Below are positions 1-26,507 of a stretch of 64,000 nucleotides of DNA, piece by piece; position 1 is the stretch's first letter, and each line of letters opens with the position of its first letter. Under the pieces are notes generated by a model. The model was not told the DNA's origin and did not search any database. It saw only the letters and a program-made list of their open reading frames with translations. The stretch is from a virus. Position numbers and translations under genes: made by a program. The stretch is from IMG/VR virus record IMGVR_UViG_3300017917_003379, one strand, 5' to 3'.

Positions 1-1481
1 TATGGTTATGGATTCGAAATATGTGTAAATATGGTGATTTTTATTTACACCTTGAAATTGCTGAAAAATTTGGTGTTTACAATGTAACACCATTATCTGT
101 TTATGATATGGTACGTGAGGAAGGTGTAGATCCTCAAAATCCATCCTATGTGTGTTTTAGAATTGATCCTATGGTTATTGCAGCTGGTGGTATTAATTCA
201 CGTGTTAAGGATAGAGATGGTAAAATTAAATTTGAAAACTACGAGATAGCTCATTTTAGATTATTAACTGATGCTAACTATCTTCCTTATGGTAGATCAT
301 ATATTGAACCTGCTCGTAAATCATACAAACAATATGTATTAATGAAAGATGCTATGTTATTACATCGCATCACTCGCGCCCCAGAAAAACGTATTTTCTA
401 CGTTGATATTGGAAATTTACCACCTAATGAGGTTGATGGATATATGGAAAGTTTAAAGCAAAAAATGCAAAAAACACCATTCATTGATCGCAATACAGGT
501 GAATATAATCTTCGTTATAACATGATGAATGTTATGGAAGACTTCTATATTCCACAACGTGGTGCTAACAGCAACACTAAAATAGACACATTAAAAGGTT
601 TAGAATATAACGCTATTGATGATGTAAACTTTTTACGTGATGAAATGTTAGCTGCTCTTAAAGTACCTAAAGCATTCTTTGGTTTTGAAAAAGACTTGAC
701 TGGTAAGGCTACTTTAGCAGCTGAAGATATTCGTTTTGCTCGTACAGTAGAACGTATACAACGTATTGTTTTATCTGAACTATATAAAATAGCTTTAGTA
801 CATTTATATACACAAGGATATGATGGTGTTTCATTAAGTAATTTTGAATTACATTTAACAACTCCTTCTATCATATATGAACAAGAAAAAATAGCATTAT
901 GGAAAGAAAAAATAGGATTAGCTAAAGATATCCAAGATTCTAAATTACTTCCTTCAGATTGGATTTATGATAATGTATTCCAATTTAGTGAAGATCAATA
1001 TGATGAATATCGTGACTTAATTATCGAAGACATGAAACGTACCTTCCGTTTATCTCAAATTGAAAACGAAGGTAATGACCCAGCTAAATCTGGTAAATCT
1101 TATGGTACACCTCATGATTTAGCCTCATTGTATGGTAAAGGTAGAATGGGTACAGGTGAAATGGGAATTGTACCTCCAGGATATGATGAAAAAAATCCTG
1201 TTGGACGTCCTAAAGAAAAAACATCCATTATGGGTACACAACGTGACCCATTAGGTAAAGATAGATTAGGTAGTAATGAAATGGGTGCTTTATACACAGC
1301 TAATATTCCTGGTAAAGGAGAAGAAAATGGTACACCAAAAGGAGGTTCACCTTTAGCATTAGCTGAATCTTTAAAATATAAAAATTTACTTAAAGAAATA
1401 CGTACAGATATGGAAAAAAAACAAAACGTATTTGAACAGGAATCTTCATTATTAGACGAAAAAAATATTAAGAACATATAA
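1..1481 (+). CDS. Portal protein (T4 gp20-like), 5'-truncated by the window edge
   Basis: Frame is open from the window start. Motifs YGDFYLHLE, LPYGRSYIEPARK, RAPEKRIFYVDIGNLP, EDFYIPQRG, ALKVPKAF and EDIRFARTVERIQ match gp20-type portals. First gene of the head module. Confidence 0.92.
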   Translation, partial: WLWIRNMCKYGDFYLHLEIAEKFGVYNVTPLSVYDMVREEGVDPQNPSYVCFRIDPMVIAAGGINSRVKDRDGKIKFENYEIAHFRLLTDANYLPYGRSYIEPARKSYKQYVLMKDAMLLHRITRAPEKRIFYVDIGNLPPNEVDGYMESLKQKMQKTPFIDRNTGEYNLRYNMMNVMEDFYIPQRGANSNTKIDTLKGLEYNAIDDVNFLRDEMLAALKVPKAFFGFEKDLTGKATLAAEDIRFARTVERIQRIVLSELYKIALVHLYTQGYDGVSLSNFELHLTTPSIIYEQEKIALWKEKIGLAKDIQDSKLLPSDWIYDNVFQFSEDQYDEYRDLIIEDMKRTFRLSQIENEGNDPAKSGKSYGTPHDLASLYGKGRMGTGEMGIVPPGYDEKNPVGRPKEKTSIMGTQRDPLGKDRLGSNEMGALYTANIPGKGEENGTPKGGSPLALAESLKYKNLLKEIRTDMEKKQNVFEQESSLLDEKNIKNI

Positions 1482-1517: not shown

Positions 1518-2369
1518 ATGAAAATCAAACATTCAAAATTCAAAAATACCGGTATATTATTTGAATTACTAGTACGCCAGATAGCATCGGATACTATATC
1601 CGGTAAAGATTCTGCTGCTATTAACTTAGTTAGAAAATATTTTTCTAAATCTGAATTAACTAAAGAACATAAGCTATATCAAGCTTTAATTAATACTAAA
1701 GTATTAACTGAAAGTAAAGCAGAATCGTTAATTAATGCAACTTTAGAAATATCTTCTAGATTAAATCGTACTACTCTTCGTAAAGAAAAATACAATTTGA
1801 TTAAAGATATTCGTGAAGCGTATGATATAGAAGAGTTTTTCAAAGCTAAAATTAACAATTATACACAATATGCGGCTGCATATAATTTAATTGAAACTCA
1901 TAATTCAACAGAATTTATTGATCCTTCTAATGTTATTGAAAATAAAATAACTTTACTTGAACATATTACTCGTAAAGAATTAAATAGAGATAATATTAAA
2001 GATCGTGTATTAGAAGAATATGCTAGAATGGATAAAGGTACTCGTATTTTAGCATATAAAATATTGCTTGAAAAGTTCAATGAAAAGTATGGTAATATGT
2101 CATCTGCTCAAAAAACAGTACTAAAAGAATATATTAACAATATATCTAATACAGTTAAATTACGTGAATTTGTTAACACTAACTATCTCAGTATTAAAAA
2201 ACGTTTAGTAGAATTAAACAAATCAGTAACAGATAAAACTACTCAAATTAAAATAAATGAAGTAATAAATTTGTTAAAACCATTGGATAAAAACCAAAAC
2301 GTAAAGGACGACAATATTATAGCTTTACTTCAATTTCATCAGTTAATTGACGAATTAAACGCAGTATAA
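1518..2369 (+). CDS. Head-module hypothetical protein
   Basis: 283-aa helical ORF directly after portal with its own ATATTTAT motif. No catalytic motif recognised. Confidence 0.6.
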   Translation: MKIKHSKFKNTGILFELLVRQIASDTISGKDSAAINLVRKYFSKSELTKEHKLYQALINTKVLTESKAESLINATLEISSRLNRTTLRKEKYNLIKDIREAYDIEEFFKAKINNYTQYAAAYNLIETHNSTEFIDPSNVIENKITLLEHITRKELNRDNIKDRVLEEYARMDKGTRILAYKILLEKFNEKYGNMSSAQKTVLKEYINNISNTVKLREFVNTNYLSIKKRLVELNKSVTDKTTQIKINEVINLLKPLDKNQNVKDDNIIALLQFHQLIDELNAV

Positions 2370-3064
2370 TGGGAAATTTGAAAGAATATATAAAATCATT
2401 AGTACGCAAAGAGTTAGAAGAACAATCTGCTACTGGTGCTATTGGTGTAGGTGCTGGTCCAATACAAACTCCAAAAGCTTTTGCTCCTAAAGGACAAAAG
2501 AAAAACAAAGCAACAAAATATGCTGAAAAAGAAGGATGGAAAGTAACTAAAGGTGAAACCACAATGCCTTCTGATTCTAAAGTAAGAGATTATAAATCAC
2601 TTTGGCCTTCTGCTAAAAAGAAAAAAGTAAAAATTTATAATGAGCGTAGTAACTATGACCAAGCATCAAAATATGGTGCTGCTAGTGGATATACTGCTGC
2701 TAGTGGTTATACTGGTCCTAGTTTAGCTACTAAAGGTGGTGGATATTATGCAAGTGCTATAAAAGAAAATAATATGAATTTAAATAATATTGTTAAACAA
2801 GAATTACTTAACGAAGTAACATACAACAAGTTCAAAAACGAAGTTAAATATAGAACTAAAGCTGAACAACTTCATAAAGCAATTCGTGAAGTAAAACGTA
2901 AACTACAAGAAATAGATCGTATTGTTGAATACACACAACGTATGAAACAAGAATTAAGTGAAGGTGAAGGTATCCAATATTGGAACCGCACAAATAAAGC
3001 AGTAGCTACTATTTCAGAAATGGTAAATCATTTAAATAATAAAATTAAAAATTTAAATCAATAA
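2369..3064 (+). CDS. Putative prohead core/internal protein
   Basis: Coupled to the previous ORF (TAATG). Leader LKEYIKSLVRKELEE, several (L/I)xE sites and a C-terminal coiled coil. Confidence 0.5.
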   Translation: MGNLKEYIKSLVRKELEEQSATGAIGVGAGPIQTPKAFAPKGQKKNKATKYAEKEGWKVTKGETTMPSDSKVRDYKSLWPSAKKKKVKIYNERSNYDQASKYGAASGYTAASGYTGPSLATKGGGYYASAIKENNMNLNNIVKQELLNEVTYNKFKNEVKYRTKAEQLHKAIREVKRKLQEIDRIVEYTQRMKQELSEGEGIQYWNRTNKAVATISEMVNHLNNKIKNLNQ

Positions 3065-3192
3065 TGGCTAAAGCAAGAGGTTCAAACGATGTTAAAAAAG
3101 TAACATTCGGTTCTCGTAAAAAAGGAAGTGCAAAAAAATCATATAATAAACATACACCTCGTCCTAAAAAATATCGTGGACAAGGTAGATAA
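3064..3192 (+). CDS. Small basic protein ending KKYRGQGR (42 aa, not in the ORF track)
   Basis: Read manually: MAKARGSNDVKKVTFGSRKKGSAKKSYNKHTPRPKKYRGQGR. TAATG coupling to the upstream ORF. Confidence 0.7.
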   Translation: MAKARGSNDVKKVTFGSRKKGSAKKSYNKHTPRPKKYRGQGR

Positions 3193-3204
3193 AAATATAT
3201 AATA

Positions 3205-3669
3205 ATGACTGTTAAAGATCTACGTATATTAGTTAAAGAAGTATTAAAAGAAACAAAAACTTTAGGTGAAATAAGAATATCTCAACCTACTAAAAAACCC
3301 TATGATCAAGTAATAGATATATCTTTAGAATATACAGGATGTAGTGAATATGGTGTTTTAATTGATGGTATGAAAAATAATGAAAACATAAGTGTACATA
3401 TATGCCTTGATGTTGAAGAATACTGGGAACCTGCTGAACCTCAAACACTATACTCACCCGGCACTGCAGGTGGTTTAACAGAATTAGAATTGGATATAAT
3501 TAATGGCACTATATATAATGAAACTAATACTCTTGACAGAACTTTAACTTCAGGAGAAATTGTAGCAATTAAAAGAGATAAAGCAGTAATGGATCATATT
3601 TATCAACTTCTATTTGATGAAATATCAAATCGACCACAAGATGAACCTTATGATCCTTATGATTATTAA
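3205..3669 (+). CDS. Putative internal head protein
   Basis: Leader MTVKDLRILVKEVLKE followed by an acidic domain. Lies in the head module. Confidence 0.45.
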   Translation: MTVKDLRILVKEVLKETKTLGEIRISQPTKKPYDQVIDISLEYTGCSEYGVLIDGMKNNENISVHICLDVEEYWEPAEPQTLYSPGTAGGLTELELDIINGTIYNETNTLDRTLTSGEIVAIKRDKAVMDHIYQLLFDEISNRPQDEPYDPYDY

Positions 3670-3712: not shown

Positions 3713-4831
3713 ATGAAAAGCATTAAACAACAGTATATAGATTTAAAAGAAGGTAAAATGTCACAAGCAAACTTTATGCGTAATTTACGCATGACTTTAC
3801 CTCAATATGTAACTAACGTAACTTCATATAATGATGCTGTTAAAATTCTTCGCAACAAAGGTATTTTAAATGAAAGTCTTATTAAGCAACTAGAACAAGG
3901 TATTGAAGTAGAAAAAGAACACACTAGTGATGAAATTAAAGCTGCTGAAATTGCTTTAGATCATTTAAAAGAAAAACCTGACTATTATACTAAATTAAAA
4001 AAAGCCGGTTTAGAAGAAAATAAAAATTGGACTAACGCTAGCGGAAAAGAATTATATAGTCAATTTAAAGAAATTGATAACCTAAATAGCCAAGAAGTAT
4101 TAATTGGTATTGATTTTGAAATTGAACAAAATCATGAGTTATCTAAAGAAGAAGCTGTTAAGATTGTTATTAAAAATTTAAAGAAAAACCCATACTATTA
4201 TACTACTAGTTTAATGGCTGGTAAAAAATTTGAAGAAATACCCACTATTGGAAAATTAACACCTGGTTCTGATAAAATGAAAGAATTTAAAGGTGAAAAC
4301 GATGCTATTGATAAGGACAACATGATGAAACCTGTTAAAGGTATTGATAAACCTAAAAAAGACTCTGATAAAGGTGGTGAAAAAAATAAAATGGTTAAAA
4401 ATGTTTCTTCTATGTCTTTAGTTGCTAAAACATCTCGTGGTGTGCAAAAAATGGCTGCTACTGGTGAAAAAATGAAAACTATCAGAGAAGCAGAAGAAAA
4501 GAAAAATACAGATACATCTTCTAATACAAAAAGTGTACCTAGTACTATTTTTAGCAAAAATGCTAAGTTAAGTGCTAGTATTAGTAAATTAATGGATAAA
4601 GATCCAAATGCTGTTAGTAAACAAAATAGACTTAAAGATATCATTCGTGAATTAATTAAGCAAGAAATGTATGATGGAATGGAACCAATGAGCCGTAAAG
4701 AATTAGATGAAACTGATATATATGGTATTGCTGGTAATCCTGAAAAAGAAAAAGAAGCACGTCTTGCCTCTATAAAAAAATCTAAACCCTCTACAACAAC
4801 AACTAAAAGTACAAAAAAGCCTAAAAAATGA
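3713..4831 (+). CDS. Putative prohead core/internal protein with two DUF5661-like repeats
   Basis: GIEVEKEHT..AAEIALDHLKEKPDYYTKL plus a second degenerate copy. Many (L/I)xE sites. ATGA overlap with the protease gene. Confidence 0.5.
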   Translation: MKSIKQQYIDLKEGKMSQANFMRNLRMTLPQYVTNVTSYNDAVKILRNKGILNESLIKQLEQGIEVEKEHTSDEIKAAEIALDHLKEKPDYYTKLKKAGLEENKNWTNASGKELYSQFKEIDNLNSQEVLIGIDFEIEQNHELSKEEAVKIVIKNLKKNPYYYTTSLMAGKKFEEIPTIGKLTPGSDKMKEFKGENDAIDKDNMMKPVKGIDKPKKDSDKGGEKNKMVKNVSSMSLVAKTSRGVQKMAATGEKMKTIREAEEKKNTDTSSNTKSVPSTIFSKNAKLSASISKLMDKDPNAVSKQNRLKDIIRELIKQEMYDGMEPMSRKELDETDIYGIAGNPEKEKEARLASIKKSKPSTTTTKSTKKPKK

Positions 4832-5442
4832 AACAGCTTTTAATAGAACATATTCCCTTTAGTATAGCTAAACTTACTCTTACTGAAAGTAAGGGTGGTA
4901 GAATGGTATTAGAAGGTAAACTGCAAGAAGCCGAACAAAAAAATGGTAACGGCCGTGTTTATCCTAGAGAAGTATTACAACGCGAAGTAGAAAAATATAT
5001 TAAAGGGCCTATATCCCAAAACAATGCCCTAGGTGAACTAGACCATCCAGAATCATCTGTAATTAATTTATCTAACGTTTCTCATAATATTAAAAAAGTA
5101 TGGTGGGATGATAATAATTTAATGGGTCGTTTAGAATTACTTAACACACCTTCTGGTAAAATTGCTATGGAATTAGTAAGCGCTGGTATTCCTTTAGGAA
5201 TATCATCTCGCGGTATGGGTAGCGTTAAGCAGCTAGGTGAAACAGTTGAAGTACAAGATGACTTTGAATTATTATGTTGGGATCTGGTATCTATACCCAG
5301 CACACCAAATGCTTACATGCAACCTGTTGGTTCATTAAAAGAAGGCAAACAATTTAATACTATTACTAAAGACTATAGCAGAGTAAATTCACTTATTACA
5401 GAAATTATTTGCAGTCAAACTGGTATTTGTCCTTTATGTTAA
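4828..5442 (+). CDS. Prohead maturation protease (T4 gp21-like)
   Basis: NGNGRVYPREVL, GELDHP (His), GISSRGMGS (Ser), WDLVSIPSTPNA (Asp). Confidence 0.92.
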   Translation: MKQLLIEHIPFSIAKLTLTESKGGRMVLEGKLQEAEQKNGNGRVYPREVLQREVEKYIKGPISQNNALGELDHPESSVINLSNVSHNIKKVWWDDNNLMGRLELLNTPSGKIAMELVSAGIPLGISSRGMGSVKQLGETVEVQDDFELLCWDLVSIPSTPNAYMQPVGSLKEGKQFNTITKDYSRVNSLITEIICSQTGICPLC

Positions 5443-6255: not shown

Positions 6256-6672
6256 ATGGCCCAATTAATTAACGAAGCAAAAAGAATGCAATTTTTAGCT
6301 GGAATTATTACTGAATCTCAAATAAATGAATTAAATGAACCTGAAAAGGAACTAGTTGATGTTATTTTAGGTGAAGGTATTAATGAAGGAAAATTTAATC
6401 CTAAAGAAATATTAGCTAAATTAATAGCTGTAGCTAAAAAAGGTTTACTTACTGCTACTATTTTATCTACTGTTTTAGCATCTTGTAATTTTGGTCCATC
6501 TGTTGATGAAACTATTAAGAATAGAGTAGAACAACATAAAATTATAAATAGTATGGAATTAGACCAATGGAAAAGAGATGAAACTTTTAAAAATAAAATG
6601 GATAGCCTTAAACAAGATTTAAAAGCAATTGAATATCAATCTGGACTTTCTAATCCTAAAAATCCTTTCTAA
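6256..6672 (+). CDS. Putative head-packaged protein with internal lipoprotein signal
   Basis: Leader LINEAKRMQFLAGIITE. Internal KKGLLTATILSTV-LASC lipobox-like segment. Confidence 0.55.
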   Translation: MAQLINEAKRMQFLAGIITESQINELNEPEKELVDVILGEGINEGKFNPKEILAKLIAVAKKGLLTATILSTVLASCNFGPSVDETIKNRVEQHKIINSMELDQWKRDETFKNKMDSLKQDLKAIEYQSGLSNPKNPF

Positions 6673-6674
6673 GT

Positions 6675-7268
6675 ATGTTAATAAAAGAAGCAAAACGATT
6701 ACAACAATTAGCTGGTATCATTACTGAAGCTGAGCAAGTTGATAGTGCTGAACAAGCCGCTGAAAAAGGATTAATAGATTTTTTAGGAGACATTAAATCA
6801 GCAGCATCAACTATCAAACCATCTCCTAAAGATGGAAAAATACAAGAAGGACTTTTAACATTATTTGCCATCACTGCTGGTGCTCCAGGTTTATTAAATT
6901 TACTAGGTAAAGGAGCTGATTTAATAGGTCAATATTTTTCACAAGGTAATGTAACTTCTACTAAAGTAGGAGCAGCTTTACAAAAAGCAGGACATAGCTT
7001 AGAACATAAGTATATTGAAGCAATTGCCTTTCTATTAAAAAAAGCATATCCTAAAGATTATGGAAATCAAGATCCATTTGATAAATCATCTCCATTACAC
7101 GATACAGCTCATGGAATTTATGCTGCTATACTAGCAGCGGCCGCTGTGGGATCAGGAATAGAAGCAACTAATGCTGTTAATTTAATTGTAAAAGGATTAG
7201 AAGGAGGAGCAGCAGCTTTTAAAACAGCTGAAGTTGTACAATTAGTACAAAAAATAACAACCGTTTAA
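6675..7268 (+). CDS. Putative head-packaged membrane-interacting protein
   Basis: Leader LIKEAKRLQQLAGIITE. Gly/Ala-rich hydrophobic helices. Confidence 0.5.
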   Translation: MLIKEAKRLQQLAGIITEAEQVDSAEQAAEKGLIDFLGDIKSAASTIKPSPKDGKIQEGLLTLFAITAGAPGLLNLLGKGADLIGQYFSQGNVTSTKVGAALQKAGHSLEHKYIEAIAFLLKKAYPKDYGNQDPFDKSSPLHDTAHGIYAAILAAAAVGSGIEATNAVNLIVKGLEGGAAAFKTAEVVQLVQKITTV

Positions 7269-7425
7269 AAATTAATCGCGGTTTTTAATATTTACATATA
7301 TTTATAGGTAGCCTACAATAGCTACCTATTTTTATTTATGGTAGTTTGGTAACACAATAACCCCCATTAAGCTTCCCCTACAATAAGCTTATTTCCAAAA
7401 AACAAATTTAAGGAGAAAAAAACAA

Positions 7426-8505
7426 ATGAGTAACAAAAACTTATTCAAAGAGGCTATCGCCGACGCCAAAGCCGTTCGCGAAGCAGCGTTAGCAAACGCA
7501 AAAGCCGCTCTTGAAGAAGCTTTAACTCCCAAACTTCAGTCTATGTTAGCTGCAAAGCTTAATGAAATGGCTGATGAAGAAGAGCTTGAAGAAGCAAGAG
7601 ACGACGAAAATGAAATGGAAGAAGGAATGCATCCTGACATTACCGGAGACACTATTCAAGACAAATACCGTGCAACTGGTGCTGCTCTTGAAGAAATGGG
7701 GATGGATATGGAAATAGATGAAGAAGACTTCGACTTATCTGAAATTTTAGCTGAACTTGAAGATGAAGAAGAAATTGAAGAAGATTTTGATTTATCTGAA
7801 ATCTTAGCTGAATTGAAAGAAGAAAAAGAAGAAGAGGAAGAGGAAGAAGAGGAAGAAGAAGAGAAAGAAGAGGAAGATGAAGAATTAGAGATCAAAGACA
7901 TGAGTGTTGAAGATCTTAAAGATCTTATCCGCGACATCGTATCCCAAGAAATGGAAGAAGAAGCTCCTGCTGGTGAAATGGAAGCTGAACCTTCTATGGA
8001 AATGGGTGGTGAAGAAATGACTAGCGATGATGAAGATGAGATTGATTTAGAAGAACTTTTAGCTGAATTAGATTCTTTAGACGGAACATCCGAGCTTGAA
8101 GAAGCTAAGAAGAAAAAAGCTAAGCAAGATGAAAAAGCTAAAAAAGAAAAAGAAAAAGAACTTGCTGAGGCTATTAGAACTATTAACACCCTTCGTAAAG
8201 AATTAAACGAAGTTAACTTATTAAATGCTAAGTTAATTTATGTTAACAAAATCTTTAAAGCTAAGAATTTAACTGAATCACAAAAAGTAAAAGTAATTTC
8301 TTCGTTTGACCAAGCAACAACTGTAAAAGAAGCTAAAGTTGTATTTGAATCCTTAAATATGGCTTTAACAACAGCTCCTGCCAAAAAGCAAATTAAAGAA
8401 TCTTTAGGATTTGCTTCTAAAGCTGCTGGTGTAGCTCCTAAAAAAGTAATTGTTGAGTCTAATGACGTAATTGCTCGTATGCAAAAACTTGCAAACATTA
8501 AATAA
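7426..8505 (+). CDS. Prohead scaffold protein (T4 gp22-like)
   Basis: Very acidic coiled coil between protease and capsid genes. Many LxE sites. C-terminus RMQKLANIK. Confidence 0.8.
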   Translation: MSNKNLFKEAIADAKAVREAALANAKAALEEALTPKLQSMLAAKLNEMADEEELEEARDDENEMEEGMHPDITGDTIQDKYRATGAALEEMGMDMEIDEEDFDLSEILAELEDEEEIEEDFDLSEILAELKEEKEEEEEEEEEEEEKEEEDEELEIKDMSVEDLKDLIRDIVSQEMEEEAPAGEMEAEPSMEMGGEEMTSDDEDEIDLEELLAELDSLDGTSELEEAKKKKAKQDEKAKKEKEKELAEAIRTINTLRKELNEVNLLNAKLIYVNKIFKAKNLTESQKVKVISSFDQATTVKEAKVVFESLNMALTTAPAKKQIKESLGFASKAAGVAPKKVIVESNDVIARMQKLANIK

Positions 8506-8542: not shown

Positions 8543-10183
8543 ATGAACATCCAACAATTATTAGAGTCGTCTAACCAATATAAGGTTATTGCTGACGACG
8601 CAAGAAAACTTAACTCCAAGTGGGTTAAATCTGGCCTTTTAGAAGGTTTAAAGAATGAGAACGATCGCAACACTATGGCGATGTTACTCGAAAACCAAGC
8701 TAAGCAATTAGTAACTGAAGCTTCTCAAACTGGTACTGCTACCATCGGTGGTGGTGGATATGGTCAGGAAGCTTGGAATGGTGTAGCTTTACCATTAGTA
8801 CGTCGTGTATTTGGTGAAATCGCCGCTAAAGAATTCGTTAGTGTACAGCCTATGAATTTACCTTCTGGTCTTGTATTCTATTTAGATTTCAAATACGGTA
8901 GCAACTTCCCCGATCCTTTCACCCAGAATGGTTCTTTATATGGTGCTAACGCTACTACTAACGTAACTGACATTGCTTCTCAGTCGCTTTATGGTGCTGG
9001 TCGCTTTGGTTACACTATCAACCAATTCTCTGCTTCTATTACCAATGCTGGTACTAGTTCAGCTACATGGGCTGATTTCAACTTTGATTCTGACTATTCA
9101 GCTTCTGCTGCTGCTGGTTCTTGGAAGAAAATCTTAGTTCCCCTTCCTTCTACTGCTGATCAGCTTGGCGTTCGTGCTTTCACTATCGCTTCTGGTTCTA
9201 TCGGTGTAAGTGATGTATTACAAGCTTTCACTACTGTAACTAACAGTACTGCTTCGTTTATTGTTACTGGTTCGCTTGTAGCTGCTAATATGAGTCCTAC
9301 TGCTGCTACTGTAACATTATATTTCAATGTTGCTCCTCTTTCTACTGCTCGTGGTGATTTTGAAGATGCTAGCGGTGCTGGTTATCCTTCATACAACAGC
9401 ACAGCTGCTGGTGCAGGTAGTGCAATTGCTATTCCTGAAATCAATGTTCAGTTAAAATCTGAGCCTATTGTTGCTAAAACTCGTAAGTTAAAAGCACAGT
9501 GGACTCCAGAATTCGCTCAGGATCTTAACGCTTACCATAGTGTAGATGCTGAAGCTGAATTAACTGGTATTCTATCTCAGTACATCTCTATGGAAATCGA
9601 CCTCGAAATTCTAGATATGTTAATCCAAAATGCTTTCACTAAAGATTACTGGAGTGCTGTCAACAACGTAACTATCGACTCTAACGGTGTTACTAATCCT
9701 GCTGCTTTAGCTTCTGGTTATTACAACACTCAGGGTGGTTGGTTCCAAACTTTAGGTACTAAACTTCAGAAAGTATCTAACAAAATTCATCAGTTAACTC
9801 TTCGTGGTGGCGCTAACTTCCTCGTAACTTCTCCCACTGTAGCTACTATCCTTGAATCTATTCCTGGATTTGCTGCTGATGGTGATGGTGAAAAGATGGA
9901 ATTCAACTTCGGTATTCAGAAGGTTGGTTCTCTCAATAGCCGTTACAAGGTTTATAAGAACCCATACATGACTGAAAACGTAATCTTAATGGGTTACAAA
10001 GGTGCTCAGTTCCTTGAGTGTGGTGCTGTATTTGCTCCATATGTGCCTTTAATCATGACTCCTCTTCTTTACGATCCTAATACCTTCACTCCACGTAAAG
10101 GTTTGATGACTCGTTACGCTAAGAAGATGATTAGACCGGACTATTATGGGAAGATTTATGTTAGTGGTTTAAATACTCTCTAA
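8543..10183 (+). CDS. Major capsid protein (T4 gp23-like)
   Basis: LPLVRRVF, VSVQPMNLPSGLVFYLDF, AKTRKLKAQWTPEFAQDLNAYH, EIDLEIL, YVPL, FTPRKGLMTRYA. Strongly biased codon usage. Confidence 0.96.
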   Translation: MNIQQLLESSNQYKVIADDARKLNSKWVKSGLLEGLKNENDRNTMAMLLENQAKQLVTEASQTGTATIGGGGYGQEAWNGVALPLVRRVFGEIAAKEFVSVQPMNLPSGLVFYLDFKYGSNFPDPFTQNGSLYGANATTNVTDIASQSLYGAGRFGYTINQFSASITNAGTSSATWADFNFDSDYSASAAAGSWKKILVPLPSTADQLGVRAFTIASGSIGVSDVLQAFTTVTNSTASFIVTGSLVAANMSPTAATVTLYFNVAPLSTARGDFEDASGAGYPSYNSTAAGAGSAIAIPEINVQLKSEPIVAKTRKLKAQWTPEFAQDLNAYHSVDAEAELTGILSQYISMEIDLEILDMLIQNAFTKDYWSAVNNVTIDSNGVTNPAALASGYYNTQGGWFQTLGTKLQKVSNKIHQLTLRGGANFLVTSPTVATILESIPGFAADGDGEKMEFNFGIQKVGSLNSRYKVYKNPYMTENVILMGYKGAQFLECGAVFAPYVPLIMTPLLYDPNTFTPRKGLMTRYAKKMIRPDYYGKIYVSGLNTL

Positions 10184-10878: not shown

Positions 10879-11154
10879 ATGAATATTAAAATTGACATAT
10901 TCAATGAGATACCTTGGCCTCAATTTAGACAACTAAAAGAGGTAGCTCATTTATCTGAAAGAGATAAAATAAGACATTATAATTTTTATCTGGAACAACT
11001 AAACACAGCTAGATTCCAAAATTGGTATAATGCTCAACCTAAAGGACCAAGAAAAGTAATAGTAGCTGAAGGTTTTCTCCAACAGGAAAATTTATTTTAT
11101 ATATTACAAGAAGATGGATCTAAAATTTACATAACAATAGAAAAAGAAATTTAA
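10879..11154 (+). CDS. Small virion-associated protein
   Basis: Behind ATATTTAT. C-terminal FLQQEN..ILQEDGSKI motif of a kind seen in phage structural proteins. Confidence 0.45.
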   Translation: MNIKIDIFNEIPWPQFRQLKEVAHLSERDKIRHYNFYLEQLNTARFQNWYNAQPKGPRKVIVAEGFLQQENLFYILQEDGSKIYITIEKEI

Positions 11155-11164
11155 ACATACACCT

Positions 11165-11722
11165 ATGCCAGATTTACCAATATCACAATTACCAGTTGCA
11201 GGAACTCTAACTGGAACTGAATTATTTCCTTTAGTACAAGGAGGTGTTACAAAATATAGTACTTTAGATACTATAAACAAGTATGATAAAACGTATGGAG
11301 CCTTTCAAACTAACCAAACATTATCAGGTTCAGCCAACGTATCTCAGTCTTTTATAATAGATACTTTAGATGAAGCTATAGGAATAAGCATATCTGACAA
11401 TTCTAAAATTGTGTTTAGTAAAACTGGAGTATACAACATACAATTTTCAGCACAAATAGCTCAAGGGCCATCTTCTGGCACTGTGTATATTTGGTTTAAA
11501 CGTAATGGATCTAACATTATTGAATCTAATACAGCAGTAACTGTTCCTAGTAATCAGTTTTTAGTAGCAGCATGGAATTTTGTAAAAACATTTAACGCTG
11601 GGGACTATGCTGAAATAGCATGGTTAAGCACTAGTTCTAACACTACATTCCCATATACAAACCCAGGATTAGGAATGCCTGTAATTCCTGCTCTTATAGT
11701 TACAGTAACTCAAATAAGATAA
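11165..11722 (+). CDS. Fibre/decoration protein with C1q/BclA-like beta C-terminal domain
   Basis: N-terminal ISQLP..LTGTELFPLVQGGVT fibre-type motif. C-terminal KTGVYNIQFSAQI..AGDYAEI. Confidence 0.55.
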   Translation: MPDLPISQLPVAGTLTGTELFPLVQGGVTKYSTLDTINKYDKTYGAFQTNQTLSGSANVSQSFIIDTLDEAIGISISDNSKIVFSKTGVYNIQFSAQIAQGPSSGTVYIWFKRNGSNIIESNTAVTVPSNQFLVAAWNFVKTFNAGDYAEIAWLSTSSNTTFPYTNPGLGMPVIPALIVTVTQIR

Positions 11723-14086: not shown

Positions 14087-14677
14087 ATGGCGTGGCCTAG
14101 AACTGGATTAGTATATCTTAATAACACTAGTGTTCCCACACCTGGTGTTTGTTTATCAACAGCAGCAACAGGCTCTTGTGGTGGAGGACCTGGTGGTGGA
14201 GGTGGAACTGGTGGTGGAGGTGGAGGAGGATTAGATCCTATTTTGGTAGGTCAAATACTTAACACTAACCAAAACGTTATATATTACAAAATAAATCTAG
14301 AACAAACAGTAACAAATATGTATGGTGAGTCACTAGAAAAGTGGTACTATACTGGAGTAGATGTACGTTGTAATATAAATAGAGGAGCAACTTCTAATCC
14401 AGATGATGAGTTTGGTATAGGTATAGCTCAAAATATAACAGTAGACATACCTAGAGCTCTTATCCAAACATATAATTTTCTACCAGAAGTAGGAGATATA
14501 TTAATGGACAGAGAAAGATATTATGAAGTAAATGCTGTGGATTCACAATTTGTAACTATACCAGGAACGGGAGCGTCAAATAGTGTACAAGGAACAACAG
14601 GACAAATTGTAATGTTTTCCTTATCATGTTATTTAACAAGAATAACAAAACTTAATATTATACCATATTATCAATGA
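14087..14677 (+). CDS. Neck/head-closure protein (gp14-like)
   Basis: YYKINLEQTVTNMYGES, PEVGDI, YYEVN. Gly-run linker near the N-terminus. Confidence 0.6.
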   Translation: MAWPRTGLVYLNNTSVPTPGVCLSTAATGSCGGGPGGGGGTGGGGGGGLDPILVGQILNTNQNVIYYKINLEQTVTNMYGESLEKWYYTGVDVRCNINRGATSNPDDEFGIGIAQNITVDIPRALIQTYNFLPEVGDILMDRERYYEVNAVDSQFVTIPGTGASNSVQGTTGQIVMFSLSCYLTRITKLNIIPYYQ

Positions 14678-24296: not shown

Positions 24297-26507
24297 ATGG
24301 CAGAATTAACCCCAGAACAAATACGATTAGAACAGGAACGACTTGATCTTATTGAGAAACAGAATGCTGCTGCTAAAGAACTAGCTAGTACATATGAAAA
24401 AATAGCCAAGAGTAAAATAAAACTTACTCAAGATGAAAAAAATATTTTAGGATTAACTAAACAAGTAGCAGACATGTCCTCTACTTTAGAAAAATCCATA
24501 AATAAAAGACTATCAGGAAGTGCTTCAATTAAAGATTTAGAAAAATCAATTACTGCATTAAAAAATGATCAGGTTCGTAATGGAGGTGCTCTTAGAGATT
24601 ATGAAGAAAAAATAAATAAGCTTAAACAAAAAGCATTAGAAGGATTTAAAAAATCCTTTAAAGAAGAAAATTTACAAAAAGATCTTCTTAGAAAGGCTCA
24701 TCTAGAAGAATTAAAGATTATGGATGAAATAGATGCCTTAAAAAAAGGAGATGGAGATTCTGAAAAAATAGCCGACGCAAGAAAACAATTAGTTCTTCAA
24801 AGAGATATTGTAAAGGATTATCAAGATCAACTTAGTAAAGCTACAAAATTAAAAGAAAACCAAAAAGAGATATTTAAACAACTAGAAGCATCTAAAAAAG
24901 CCCATGAAAAGATAAAAGAAGAACAACAAAAAGAAATTGAACTAGCAGAACAAACTTTAGCTGAAACTAAAAAAAGAGAAGCAAAAGAAGCGATAATAGG
25001 TACTTTAAAAAAACAACTTAGAATAGATGAAATAAAAGACATGTTTACTATAGCAGGTCTTTTAAAAATAATAATAGATGCTGCTGTTCGCTTTAATAAT
25101 ACTTCAGTACAAATAGGAAAAAATTTAGGATATGGAGCAGACCAAGCAGATAGAGTAACATCTAACTTAACTAGTATAGCTAATAGTTCTTCTAATCTTA
25201 ATGTTAATCTTAAGAATTTAGGAGAAGCAATGTCTCAATTAAATGAGGCAACAGGAGGAGTAGCTGAATATTCTGCTGATGCTCTTGAAACTCAAATATT
25301 ACTAACTAAACAATTTGGTTTAACAGGAGATGAAGCAGCAGGTATATATAAATTTTCTGTATTAACAGGTAAAGCATCTTCTACCATTAATAAAGAAATG
25401 GCAGGAGCATTTGCTAGTACTAGAAATTCTGTTAGAGGATCAGCCAATTTTAAAACAACAATGGCTGAGGTATCTAAAATATCTGGTCAATTAGCTGCTA
25501 ACTTCAAAAATAACCCTGCTGAATTAACTAAAGCAGTAGTACAGGCACAAGCATTAGGTACTACACTTGAAAAAGCAAAAAGCCAAGGTGAAGCATTACT
25601 TAATTTTGAATCTTCAATTGAAAATGAATTAAAAGCAGAATTACTTACTGGTCAACAAATGAACTTAGAAAGAGCTAGAGCAGCTGCTTTAATGGGTGAT
25701 CAAGTAACAGTAGCAAAGGAACTTGCAAATCAAGGTATGACACTTGAAAAGTTCCAAAATATGAATGTATTAGCACAAAAATCATTTGCTGAAGCACTAG
25801 GATTAAGTGCAGATGAATTATCAGAGCAATTAAAAAAACAAAAAATAGCTCAAGAACAAGGAAAATCATTAGCTCAAATAACTGAAGAAGAAGCATTAGA
25901 AGCTCAAAAAAGACAAAACATACAAGATAAATTTAATGCTGCTATTGAAAAATTACAAGATTTAATTGGCAGTTTAGTAGCTGGACCTTTAGGAAAATTT
26001 CTAGAAATTATAACTGATATATTAAGTAATACTACATTATTGTCTGCTTTATTAGGTGGTGCTTTAATAGCTAATTTAAGGCGAGTTAAAAAGGCAAGTA
26101 TTGGTAGTGCTATAGCAGATATTATAGGAGGTGCATGGAAAGCATTAGGTGGTTTATATGTTATTGGCCCCGCATTAGCAGGAGCCGCTATAGCAGGTGG
26201 AATAGCATATCTAAACTCTAAAACCGCAGATGATATGATATCTCCAGGATATGGTAAGCGTACTATATTATCACCTGAGGGTTCTATTAGATTAAATGAT
26301 AATGATACTATAGTAGCAGGTACTAATTTAGGTGGTGATGGTAAAGGTGAATCTATATCACCAACAATAGATTTAACACCAATGATTGCTGCTATTAATC
26401 AAGTTAAAGCATCCGTTGATAGATTATATAATAAAGATACTTCCATTAATATGGATGGTAAAAAAGTAGGTACAACATTAACACAAGGTTCATATAAAGT
26501 AGCGTAA
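24297..26507 (+). CDS. Tape measure protein
   Basis: Long helical Ala/Lys/Glu-rich protein after the chaperones. LLNFESSIENELKAELLTG. Hydrophobic Gly/Ala C-terminal stretch. Confidence 0.8.
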   Translation: MAELTPEQIRLEQERLDLIEKQNAAAKELASTYEKIAKSKIKLTQDEKNILGLTKQVADMSSTLEKSINKRLSGSASIKDLEKSITALKNDQVRNGGALRDYEEKINKLKQKALEGFKKSFKEENLQKDLLRKAHLEELKIMDEIDALKKGDGDSEKIADARKQLVLQRDIVKDYQDQLSKATKLKENQKEIFKQLEASKKAHEKIKEEQQKEIELAEQTLAETKKREAKEAIIGTLKKQLRIDEIKDMFTIAGLLKIIIDAAVRFNNTSVQIGKNLGYGADQADRVTSNLTSIANSSSNLNVNLKNLGEAMSQLNEATGGVAEYSADALETQILLTKQFGLTGDEAAGIYKFSVLTGKASSTINKEMAGAFASTRNSVRGSANFKTTMAEVSKISGQLAANFKNNPAELTKAVVQAQALGTTLEKAKSQGEALLNFESSIENELKAELLTGQQMNLERARAAALMGDQVTVAKELANQGMTLEKFQNMNVLAQKSFAEALGLSADELSEQLKKQKIAQEQGKSLAQITEEEALEAQKRQNIQDKFNAAIEKLQDLIGSLVAGPLGKFLEIITDILSNTTLLSALLGGALIANLRRVKKASIGSAIADIIGGAWKALGGLYVIGPALAGAAIAGGIAYLNSKTADDMISPGYGKRTILSPEGSIRLNDNDTIVAGTNLGGDGKGESISPTIDLTPMIAAINQVKASVDRLYNKDTSINMDGKKVGTTLTQGSYKVA

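Follow-up and report, generated by a model that had tools for sequence, protein, structure and literature searches.

The 64,000-nt window analysed here (IMG/VR virus record IMGVR_UViG_3300017917_003379) is the morphogenesis region of the 155-kb genome of a T4-like phage from an aquatic metagenome (~30% G+C, ~230 open reading frames, ORFs). In this phage, the extreme C-terminal tail of a gp22-type prohead scaffold protein (ORF 7426) recurs as a short N-terminal leader, hereafter the tag, in the two small ORFs immediately upstream of the scaffold gene (ORFs 6256 and 6675) and in five further ORFs outside the window. In both upstream ORFs the tag is bracketed by sites of the (L/I/V)-x-E type. Judged from sequence, the tag is probably a portable capsid-targeting peptide, removable by protease, which makes use of the docking element of the scaffold tail. 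This reading is favoured because of the motif statistics, the placement of the motif at chain termini, the unrelated bodies of the tagged proteins, the conservation of the motif, and the presence of an S77 protease in the same gene module.

The tag–tail match was assessed with a position-specific scoring matrix (PSSM) built from 28 distinct scaffold C-terminal tails (~59 related contigs), the phage's own genome being excluded, which was then used to scan its 230 ORFs. At 12 bits or more, seven matches were found in the proteome, compared with 0.06 in residue-shuffled proteomes. One is the phage's own scaffold tail (37.5 bits); the other six (12.8–22.9 bits) are N-terminal leaders and all lie 6–16 residues from the ORF start. 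This result bears out an initial annotation of the DNA, which had noticed that the leaders of ORFs 6256 and 6675 echo the end of the scaffold; the peptide strings quoted there are all present in the ORFs and translations where it had placed them. The leader of ORF 6675 scores below 12 bits with the PSSM and was identified by motif search and ortholog alignment. A plain motif search of the genome gave seven N-terminal carriers (ORFs 6256 and 6675, and five others situated 10–20 kb upstream of the window) and two C-terminal carriers, namely the scaffold and a 679-residue ORF. No clear match was found elsewhere in the genome, the sole further regular-expression match being weak and situated at an ORF start.

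The copies of the motif in this genome differ synonymously at Arg (AGA/CGT/CGA), Leu (TTA/CTA/CTT), Ala (GCA/GCT/GCG) and Gly (GGT/GGC/GGA), and also at Gln and Ile. Because the codons vary in this way, it is the peptide, and not a DNA repeat, that is under selection. The seven tagged proteins have no detectable mutual similarity beyond the leader. One of them (G000:C1:47968-48279) has an untagged paralog (11016-11249; 58% identity over 72 residues, E 1e-21), implying that the tag is a separable module. Searches of the cargo bodies against Pfam and PHROGs gave nothing except one WYL_2 match and one below-threshold Dockerin match, and a search of the ESM Atlas returned only unnamed viral clusters.

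The tag core of ORF 6256 is K-R-M-Q-F-L-A-G-I-I, of which R10–I17 lie between INE (residues 5–7, nt 6268-6276) and ITE (residues 18–20, nt 6307-6315); six [LIV]xE sites are found within residues 5–44. That of ORF 6675, K-R-L-Q-Q-L-A-G-I-I, stands between IKE (residues 3–5) and ITE (residues 16–18), so that both leader cores possess the flanking sites that had been described for them. The product of ORF 6675 is predicted to be all-helical, with two hydrophobic Gly/Ala-rich segments. In the alignment of its family, 13 of the 28 invariant columns fall within the first 18 residues, and the leader is the most conserved part of the protein. A tblastn search with ORF 6675 against 50,697 phage records found no match, and Foldseek comparison of its model with the PDB gave nothing at E 0.001 or better.

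In five relatives, the ORF 6256 leader precedes unrelated bodies encoded in the slot between the protease and scaffold genes (L006:358-819, L012:7304-7696, L029:8142-8651, L035:3932-4492, and L043:5759-6079). This slot looks like a hypervariable cargo locus and is reminiscent of the internal-protein loci of T-even phages, which are likewise variable (PMC9026906). In two other relatives the tag, preceded by I-N-E, is at the C-terminus of a small protein encoded just upstream of the scaffold (L015:8316-8759 and L031:8234-8716), and in L017:7726-8793 it is situated in the middle of the ORF, as though two genes had been fused. At residues 61–77 of ORF 6256 (nt 6436-6486), Lys-Lys-Gly is followed by a hydrophobic stretch of 12 residues and by L-A-S-C, which is lipobox-like, and this segment is retained in the ortholog L012:7304-7696. 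A protease cut at the last I-N-E (residues 42–44) would leave a lipoprotein-signal-like N-terminus, which suggests that the protein may be a packaged pre-lipoprotein.

ORF 7426 is assigned as the scaffold because of its position, its Glu/[LIV]xE composition (80 Glu in 359 residues; 22 [LIV]xE sites), its helical model, and a local match to T4 gp22. The match was obtained with hhalign between the scaffold C-domain and residues 160–196 of gp22 (33 columns, 42% identity), at a probability of 7.6% that alone is not significant. The ORF has no match to a Pfam or PHROG family. An AlphaFold2 model built with 43 sequences predicts a long N-terminal helix, then low-confidence acidic stretches, and a compact helical C-domain at residues 221–315 that is modelled with high confidence. 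This domain is followed by a linker of ~30 residues (316–346) of low confidence (predicted local distance difference test, pLDDT, ~45) and by the tail, which is modelled as a 9-residue helix (residues 347–355) and four non-helical residues. Foldseek comparison of the scaffold model with the PDB gave nothing at E 0.001 or better.

The tail conforms to R-(M/W/L/F)-(Q/K)-x-L-A-(G/N)-I followed by 1–4 residues and the stop codon, and it is kept in essentially all related scaffolds, usually with I-V-E six residues upstream. About 50 related head modules retain it, and in ~60 scaffolds it lies 1–5 residues from the stop codon. Its conserved Gly/Asn would fit a helix C-cap. The tail reaches the scaffolds of Flavobacterium phage immuto, Microcystis phage Mel-JY01 and Rhodothermus phage RM378, as well as that of the 484-kb uncultured phage LR756508; p142 of RM378 ends in R-I-K-R-L-A-G-L. 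The scaffolds of T4 (gp22, L082:4118-4927), cyanophage S-CAM8 and a KVP40-like phage also have an [LIV]xE site and a helical tail of 13–20 residues, with other sequences, and this layout may be an ancient feature of the gp22-type family. Variable modules are inserted between the acidic region and the C-domain in several related scaffolds (L001:8731-9972, L004:8582-9943, L024:8520-9974, and L080), and the immuto scaffold contains a tandem duplication of a ~75-residue module.

IMG/VR was scanned for DNA encoding the exact octapeptide R-M-Q-Q-L-A-G-I, which occurs there at least 80 times. Among the 80 matches listed, 49 are N-terminal, 5–14 residues after the Met of small ORFs, and 30 are C-terminal, 1–5 residues before the stop of ORFs of 230–470 residues; with a single match elsewhere, 79 of the 80 are at chain termini. 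Among the same matches, a capsid gene is situated within 900 nt downstream in 28 of the 30 C-terminal carriers. The N-terminal tags there have [LIVM]-x-E 1–3 residues before the Arg in 40 of 50 cases and directly after the core in 49 of 50. When tags and tails are compared by column, they agree in the hydrophobic residue two before Arg, in R, M/W/L, Q, L, A and G/N, and in the hydrophobic residue that comes next, and they differ only outside the core.

More than 599 related stretches were found in IMG/VR, and related head loci carry 44 N-terminal tags. The closest cultured relatives, by capsid protein identity, are immuto (vB_FspM_immuto, grown on Flavobacterium sp. LMO8; 58%), Mel-JY01 (48%) and RM378 (40%), and the motif is conserved down to 40–58% capsid identity. 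Cultured immuto has two N-terminal tags, with the motif at 25094 and 111708 of MW353175.1, and LR756508 has three; a strict-pattern search found none in Mel-JY01 or RM378. This distribution fits a tail of ancestral origin and cargo tags that arose later. Co-variation of the M and W variants between tags and tails within genomes was viewed by eye only and is confounded by orthology.

The T4 protease gp21, which cleaves after L/I-x-E, breaks down gp22 and trims off the 10–19-residue capsid-targeting sequence (CTS) to which internal proteins owe their affinity for the core (PMC9026906). A comparable mechanism may be proposed here. The shared element, φ-x-R-(M/W/L)-Q-x-L-A-(G/N)-I, would form a short amphipathic helix with a Gly/Asn cap and one or two hydrophobic residues. 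As the last residues of the gp22-type scaffold, it would tether this protein to a partner inside the prohead, and the same peptide at the N-terminus, occasionally the C-terminus, of unrelated proteins would bring them into the assembling prohead via the same site. The gp21-type S77 protease, which is presumed to be the tag-removing enzyme and whose cleavage specificity is assumed from T4, would then cut the bracketing (L/I/V)-x-E sites and release a fragment of 13–17 residues. Excision of this fragment would both free the cargo and detach the scaffold. Thus far, we infer the binding, packaging, cleavage, and ejection of the tagged proteins from their sequences.

As for the receptor, analogy with P22, 80alpha and other scaffolds points, with somewhat less than even confidence, to the inner face or the N-terminal propeptide of the Gp23-type capsid protein. 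In this phage, the capsid protein has a conserved N-terminal propeptide of ~59 residues that ends in V-T-E. A wider and more speculative proposal is that the tail and the tags are ligands of one conserved prohead pocket, formed by the capsid propeptide or inner face, that the contents of the head are chosen by competition between scaffold and payload, and that ~29 of the ~230 genes, one of them for a pre-lipoprotein, encode virion-delivered proteins.

Several points weigh against a docking tag of this kind, or against the capsid protein as its receptor. The confidence of the modelled tail helix is moderate (pLDDT 65–76), and the majority of tagged genes are situated away from the head module, next to genes without an assigned timing. 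The T4-type late promoter TATAAATA is not enriched upstream of them, being found at 1/6, 1/10 and 1/8 of tagged genes compared with 15/222 overall. The T4 CTS has no significant match to gp22, gp67, gp68 or gp21 (P 0.13–0.78); since it is unlike the core proteins of its own phage, tag–tail identity characterises the present clade and is not known as a property of T4. Naked T4 cores formed without gp23 still contain internal proteins. Moreover, gp22 and the internal proteins of T4 co-purify, and the latter are described as having affinity for the core (PMC9026906), which opposes the capsid protein as the receptor. The last observation would favour an arrangement in which the docking is the same and the scaffold core serves as receptor: the tail would bind a neighbouring scaffold, for example at its helical C-domain, thereby polymerising the core, and the tags would plug free sites. 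The compact, high-confidence C-domain could provide such a site, and the folds nearest to it are three-helix bundles of a type that takes up one partner helix, although all these matches have E >0.1 and are not significant. The basic character of the tags and the very acidic scaffold also fit a receptor in the core. However, the solved scaffold ends of P22, phi29, T7, SPP1 and 80alpha contact the capsid protein's N-terminal region (PMC9546572, PMC5644958), and intramolecular docking would predict a raised pLDDT for the tail, which the monomer model does not show. A core receptor seems to us the less likely of the two, if well worth keeping in mind.

The nature of the tagged proteins can also be read differently. 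At least the ORF 6675 family might be auxiliary core or assembly regulators of the T4 gp67/gp68 or SaPI1 CpmB type and not ejected cargo, in which case they would compete with or complement the scaffold via the tail motif and may influence head size. The position and sequence of ORF 6675 are conserved in several relatives, and there is a precedent in 80alpha/SaPI1 for a second protein that shares the scaffold C-terminal motif and competes for the capsid site (PMC5644958). Nevertheless, we consider this unlikely: the tag is found on no fewer than seven bodies that are unrelated, for the most part tiny, and quick to change, one with an untagged paralog, and this fits variable payloads better, and the cleavage sites that bracket the tags would set the bodies free. 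Another reading treats the motif not as an address but as a substrate-recognition or cleavage cassette that marks ends to be trimmed by the prohead protease. The motif always adjoins (L/I/V)-x-E sites and itself ends in residues that make up such a site, but T4 gp21 requires only L/I-x-E (PMC9026906), and the 22 other candidate sites of the scaffold and those of the capsid propeptide have no motif. Furthermore, a substrate must first enter the prohead, and a cassette would not be confined to chain termini, so that this role is very improbable. Hardly credible is a resemblance without function, due to the spread of a leader by recombination or duplication among K/I/L/E-rich proteins of an AT-rich genome. 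In such a genome amphipathic K/E/I/L helices are common, and two other leader classes of this phage (described below) resemble scaffold helices only at chance level. This explanation is disfavoured by the PSSM matches, the synonymous codon variation, the terminal position of 79 of the 80 listed octapeptides, and the conservation of the motif at 40–58% capsid identity.

The initial annotation had gone further and proposed that an internal scaffold motif, the D-L-K-D-L-I-R-D-I-V-S-Q-E region (residues 162–175), is echoed in ORFs 3713, 3205 and 2369. The motif itself is almost invariant in the scaffolds of relatives and is predicted to be helical (pLDDT ~88). The three strings are present. That of ORF 3713 is borderline (8.2 bits with the relatives' scaffold matrix, 0.03 being expected per proteome), and the leaders of ORFs 3205 and 2369 are at chance level; no N-terminal leader exceeded 7 bits with the relatives' internal-motif matrix. 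Hence, from the broader claim that cargo proteins mimic scaffold motifs, what can be retained from the sequence is the reuse of the C-terminal element between protease-type sites, and the part concerning the internal motif did not survive the chance controls.

The leaders of ORFs 2369 and 3205 belong to a family of their own. Two further families of N-terminal leaders ending in (L/I)-x-E occur in this genome, class A in ~12 genes and class B in ~10, and these are real leader families. Examples of class A are at G000:C1 37161, 39415, 40073, 41369, 43842 and 45947 and at window positions 14674, 15017, 42254 and 53805; examples of class B are at G000:C1 39828, 51147, 51623, 58264 and 59485 and at window positions 2369 and 3205. 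Class B leaders were considered as mimics of the internal scaffold motif and rejected: with the class B matrix the internal motif is the best site within the scaffold, at 10.2 bits, and 13% of shuffled scaffolds score equally. Likewise, the idea that class A leaders (M-I-K-L-x-D-I-L) copy a thrice-repeated scaffold motif, D-L-S-E-I-L-A-E-L, was discarded (4.4 bits; 59% of shuffles equal). The 679-residue ORF mentioned above (G000:C1:43842-45881, L003:3842-5881) has a class A leader at its N-terminus and K-R-I-L-K-L-A-G-I-L-R at its C-terminus. The three classes of leader together are carried by ~29 of ~230 ORFs.

The features discussed are listed in Table 1. The gene order on the + strand is portal, five ORFs, S77 protease, ORF 5513, ORF 6256, ORF 6675, scaffold and Gp23 capsid protein; the five ORFs after the portal have no known family, except for a DUF5661 domain in ORF 3713. 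A 42-residue ORF within the head module (3064-3192) is extremely basic and Lys/Arg-rich, and a gene with the annotation ribosomal protein S21 occupies a comparable place in Mel-JY01. In some relatives, a second capsid-protein-like gene directly follows the first (L025:11659-13353, L035:11743-13446, and L049:5974-7614) and is probably a gp24-like vertex paralog; no second capsid-like gene is present at the corresponding position of the window.

Table 1. Coordinates of the head-module features, tags, and leaders in the window, with further gp22-type scaffolds used for comparison
Feature	Coordinates	Strand	Remarks
Portal	3-1481	+	
Class B leader of ORF 2369-3064	2369..2422	+	Separate family, not significantly scaffold-like
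Class B leader of ORF 3205-3669	3205..3270	+	Separate family, not significantly scaffold-like
Scaffold-internal-motif-like element of ORF 3713-4831 (DUF5661 protein), residues 306-318	4628..4666	+	Borderline
Prohead protease, Peptidase_S77, gp21 type	4828..5442	+	E 2.9e-30; phrog_207
Putative cargo ORF 1 (ORF 6256), 138 residues	6256..6672	+	No Pfam or PHROG family
Scaffold-tail-like tag of ORF 6256	6256..6315	+	Met1-Glu20, 20-residue leader; 12.8 bits by relatives' tail PSSM
Putative cargo or core ORF 2 (ORF 6675), 197 residues	6675..7268	+	Kept just upstream of scaffold gene in relatives
Scaffold-tail-like tag of ORF 6675	6675..6728	+	Met1-Glu18, 18-residue leader
Terminator-like hairpin, 9-bp stem and T-run	7304..7339	+	In 157-nt gap between ORF 6675 and scaffold; consensus scan only
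gp22-type prohead scaffold, 359 residues	7426..8505	+	Between S77 protease and Gp23 capsid genes
Internal scaffold motif, residues 162-175	7909..7950	+	
Scaffold C-terminal tail	8449..8502	+	IVE site (residues 342-344), then 15 residues S-N-D-V-I-A-R-M-Q-K-L-A-N-I-K
Major capsid protein, Gp23 family	8543..10183	+	Candidate receptor for tail and tag
Further gp22-type scaffolds	L210:1994-3019, L211:2495-3343, L208:1863-2711		Tail layout compared

How a T4-type head chooses its internal proteins has been a standing question since the CTS was defined in 1996, reportedly by Mullaney and Black. The receptor of the T4 CTS is described only as 'the core', whose structure is unsolved (PMC3012670, PMC9026906). 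In the large and environmentally common clade studied here, the address peptide matches a defined scaffold element. If tail and tag share a site, finding the binding site of the scaffold tail would therefore also find that of the cargo, and the question of the CTS receptor becomes directly testable in a cultured phage, as immuto carries the tag. The results suggest that payloads can be recruited by copying ~13 residues of the scaffold end. They also offer a natural, self-removing encapsidation tag for engineering, and they flag the small tagged proteins, which have no assigned function, as candidate injected host-takeover or anti-defence factors.

A full-text search of the literature found neither the motif nor any cargo that mimics a scaffold tail described for T4-like phages. 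By analogy, this is functionally a CTS system that differs from the T4 CTS in sequence and layout. In T4, the CTS is present on internal proteins IPI–III and in the Alt propeptide, is removed by gp21, and suffices to package foreign proteins (PMC9026906, PMC3012670, PMC5694885). As in T4, a short N-terminal peptide ending in (L/I)-x-E is found here on unrelated, fast-evolving proteins, in a phage with an S77 protease and a gp20–gp21–gp22–gp23 module. Unlike the T4 CTS, the tag has protease-type sites on both sides, is also found at C-termini, and matches the C-terminal tail of the scaffold, whereas no significant similarity links the T4 CTS to the core proteins or protease of T4. On inspection, the CTS sequence taken from the T4 genome does not resemble the R-M-Q-x-L-A-G-I core, and the analogy is a functional one.

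Sharing of a scaffold C-terminal motif is already known from 80alpha and SaPI1, but not for cargo. The same holds, to our knowledge, for the motif shared by the protease and scaffold of herpesviruses. In these viruses, the assemblin and scaffold proteins (HSV-1 UL26/UL26.5) end in a common tail with which they bind the major capsid protein. The scaffold is released when the maturational protease cleaves immediately upstream of this tail, and the sharing arises from nested genes. The conserved IVE before the phage tail looks equivalent to this release site, but what is shared in the phage is a portable tag carried by unrelated proteins. In 80alpha, the 16 C-terminal residues of the scaffold form an 11-residue amphipathic helix and a 5-residue R-I-I-K hook, which bind the N-arm of the capsid protein (PMC5644958). 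CpmB of SaPI1 copies this helix and hook and competes for the capsid site (Dearborn et al. 2017, PMC5644958). The parallel is close in two respects: a second protein shares the C-terminal motif of the scaffold, and the tail of the phage scaffold is likewise predicted to be a short helix with a few non-helical residues and a hydrophobic/Lys end. This likeness is one of build. CpmB, however, is the rival scaffold of a satellite that changes capsid size and is not cargo, its motif is C-terminal only, and the 80alpha/SaPI1 system does not have the many unrelated carriers found here.

Two cargo-loading systems resemble the proposed tag from another side. Encapsulin cargo-loading peptides are short terminal peptides that direct unrelated cargo to the inner face of an HK97-fold shell, with no scaffold and no removal of the tag, and in engineered P22 virus-like particles the C-terminal part of the scaffold is fused to cargo for loading. 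Unlike the encapsulin peptides, the tag described here is bracketed by protease-type sites in a phage that encodes both scaffold and protease; and unlike the man-made P22 fusions, its arrangement is natural, mostly N-terminal, and flanked by protease sites.

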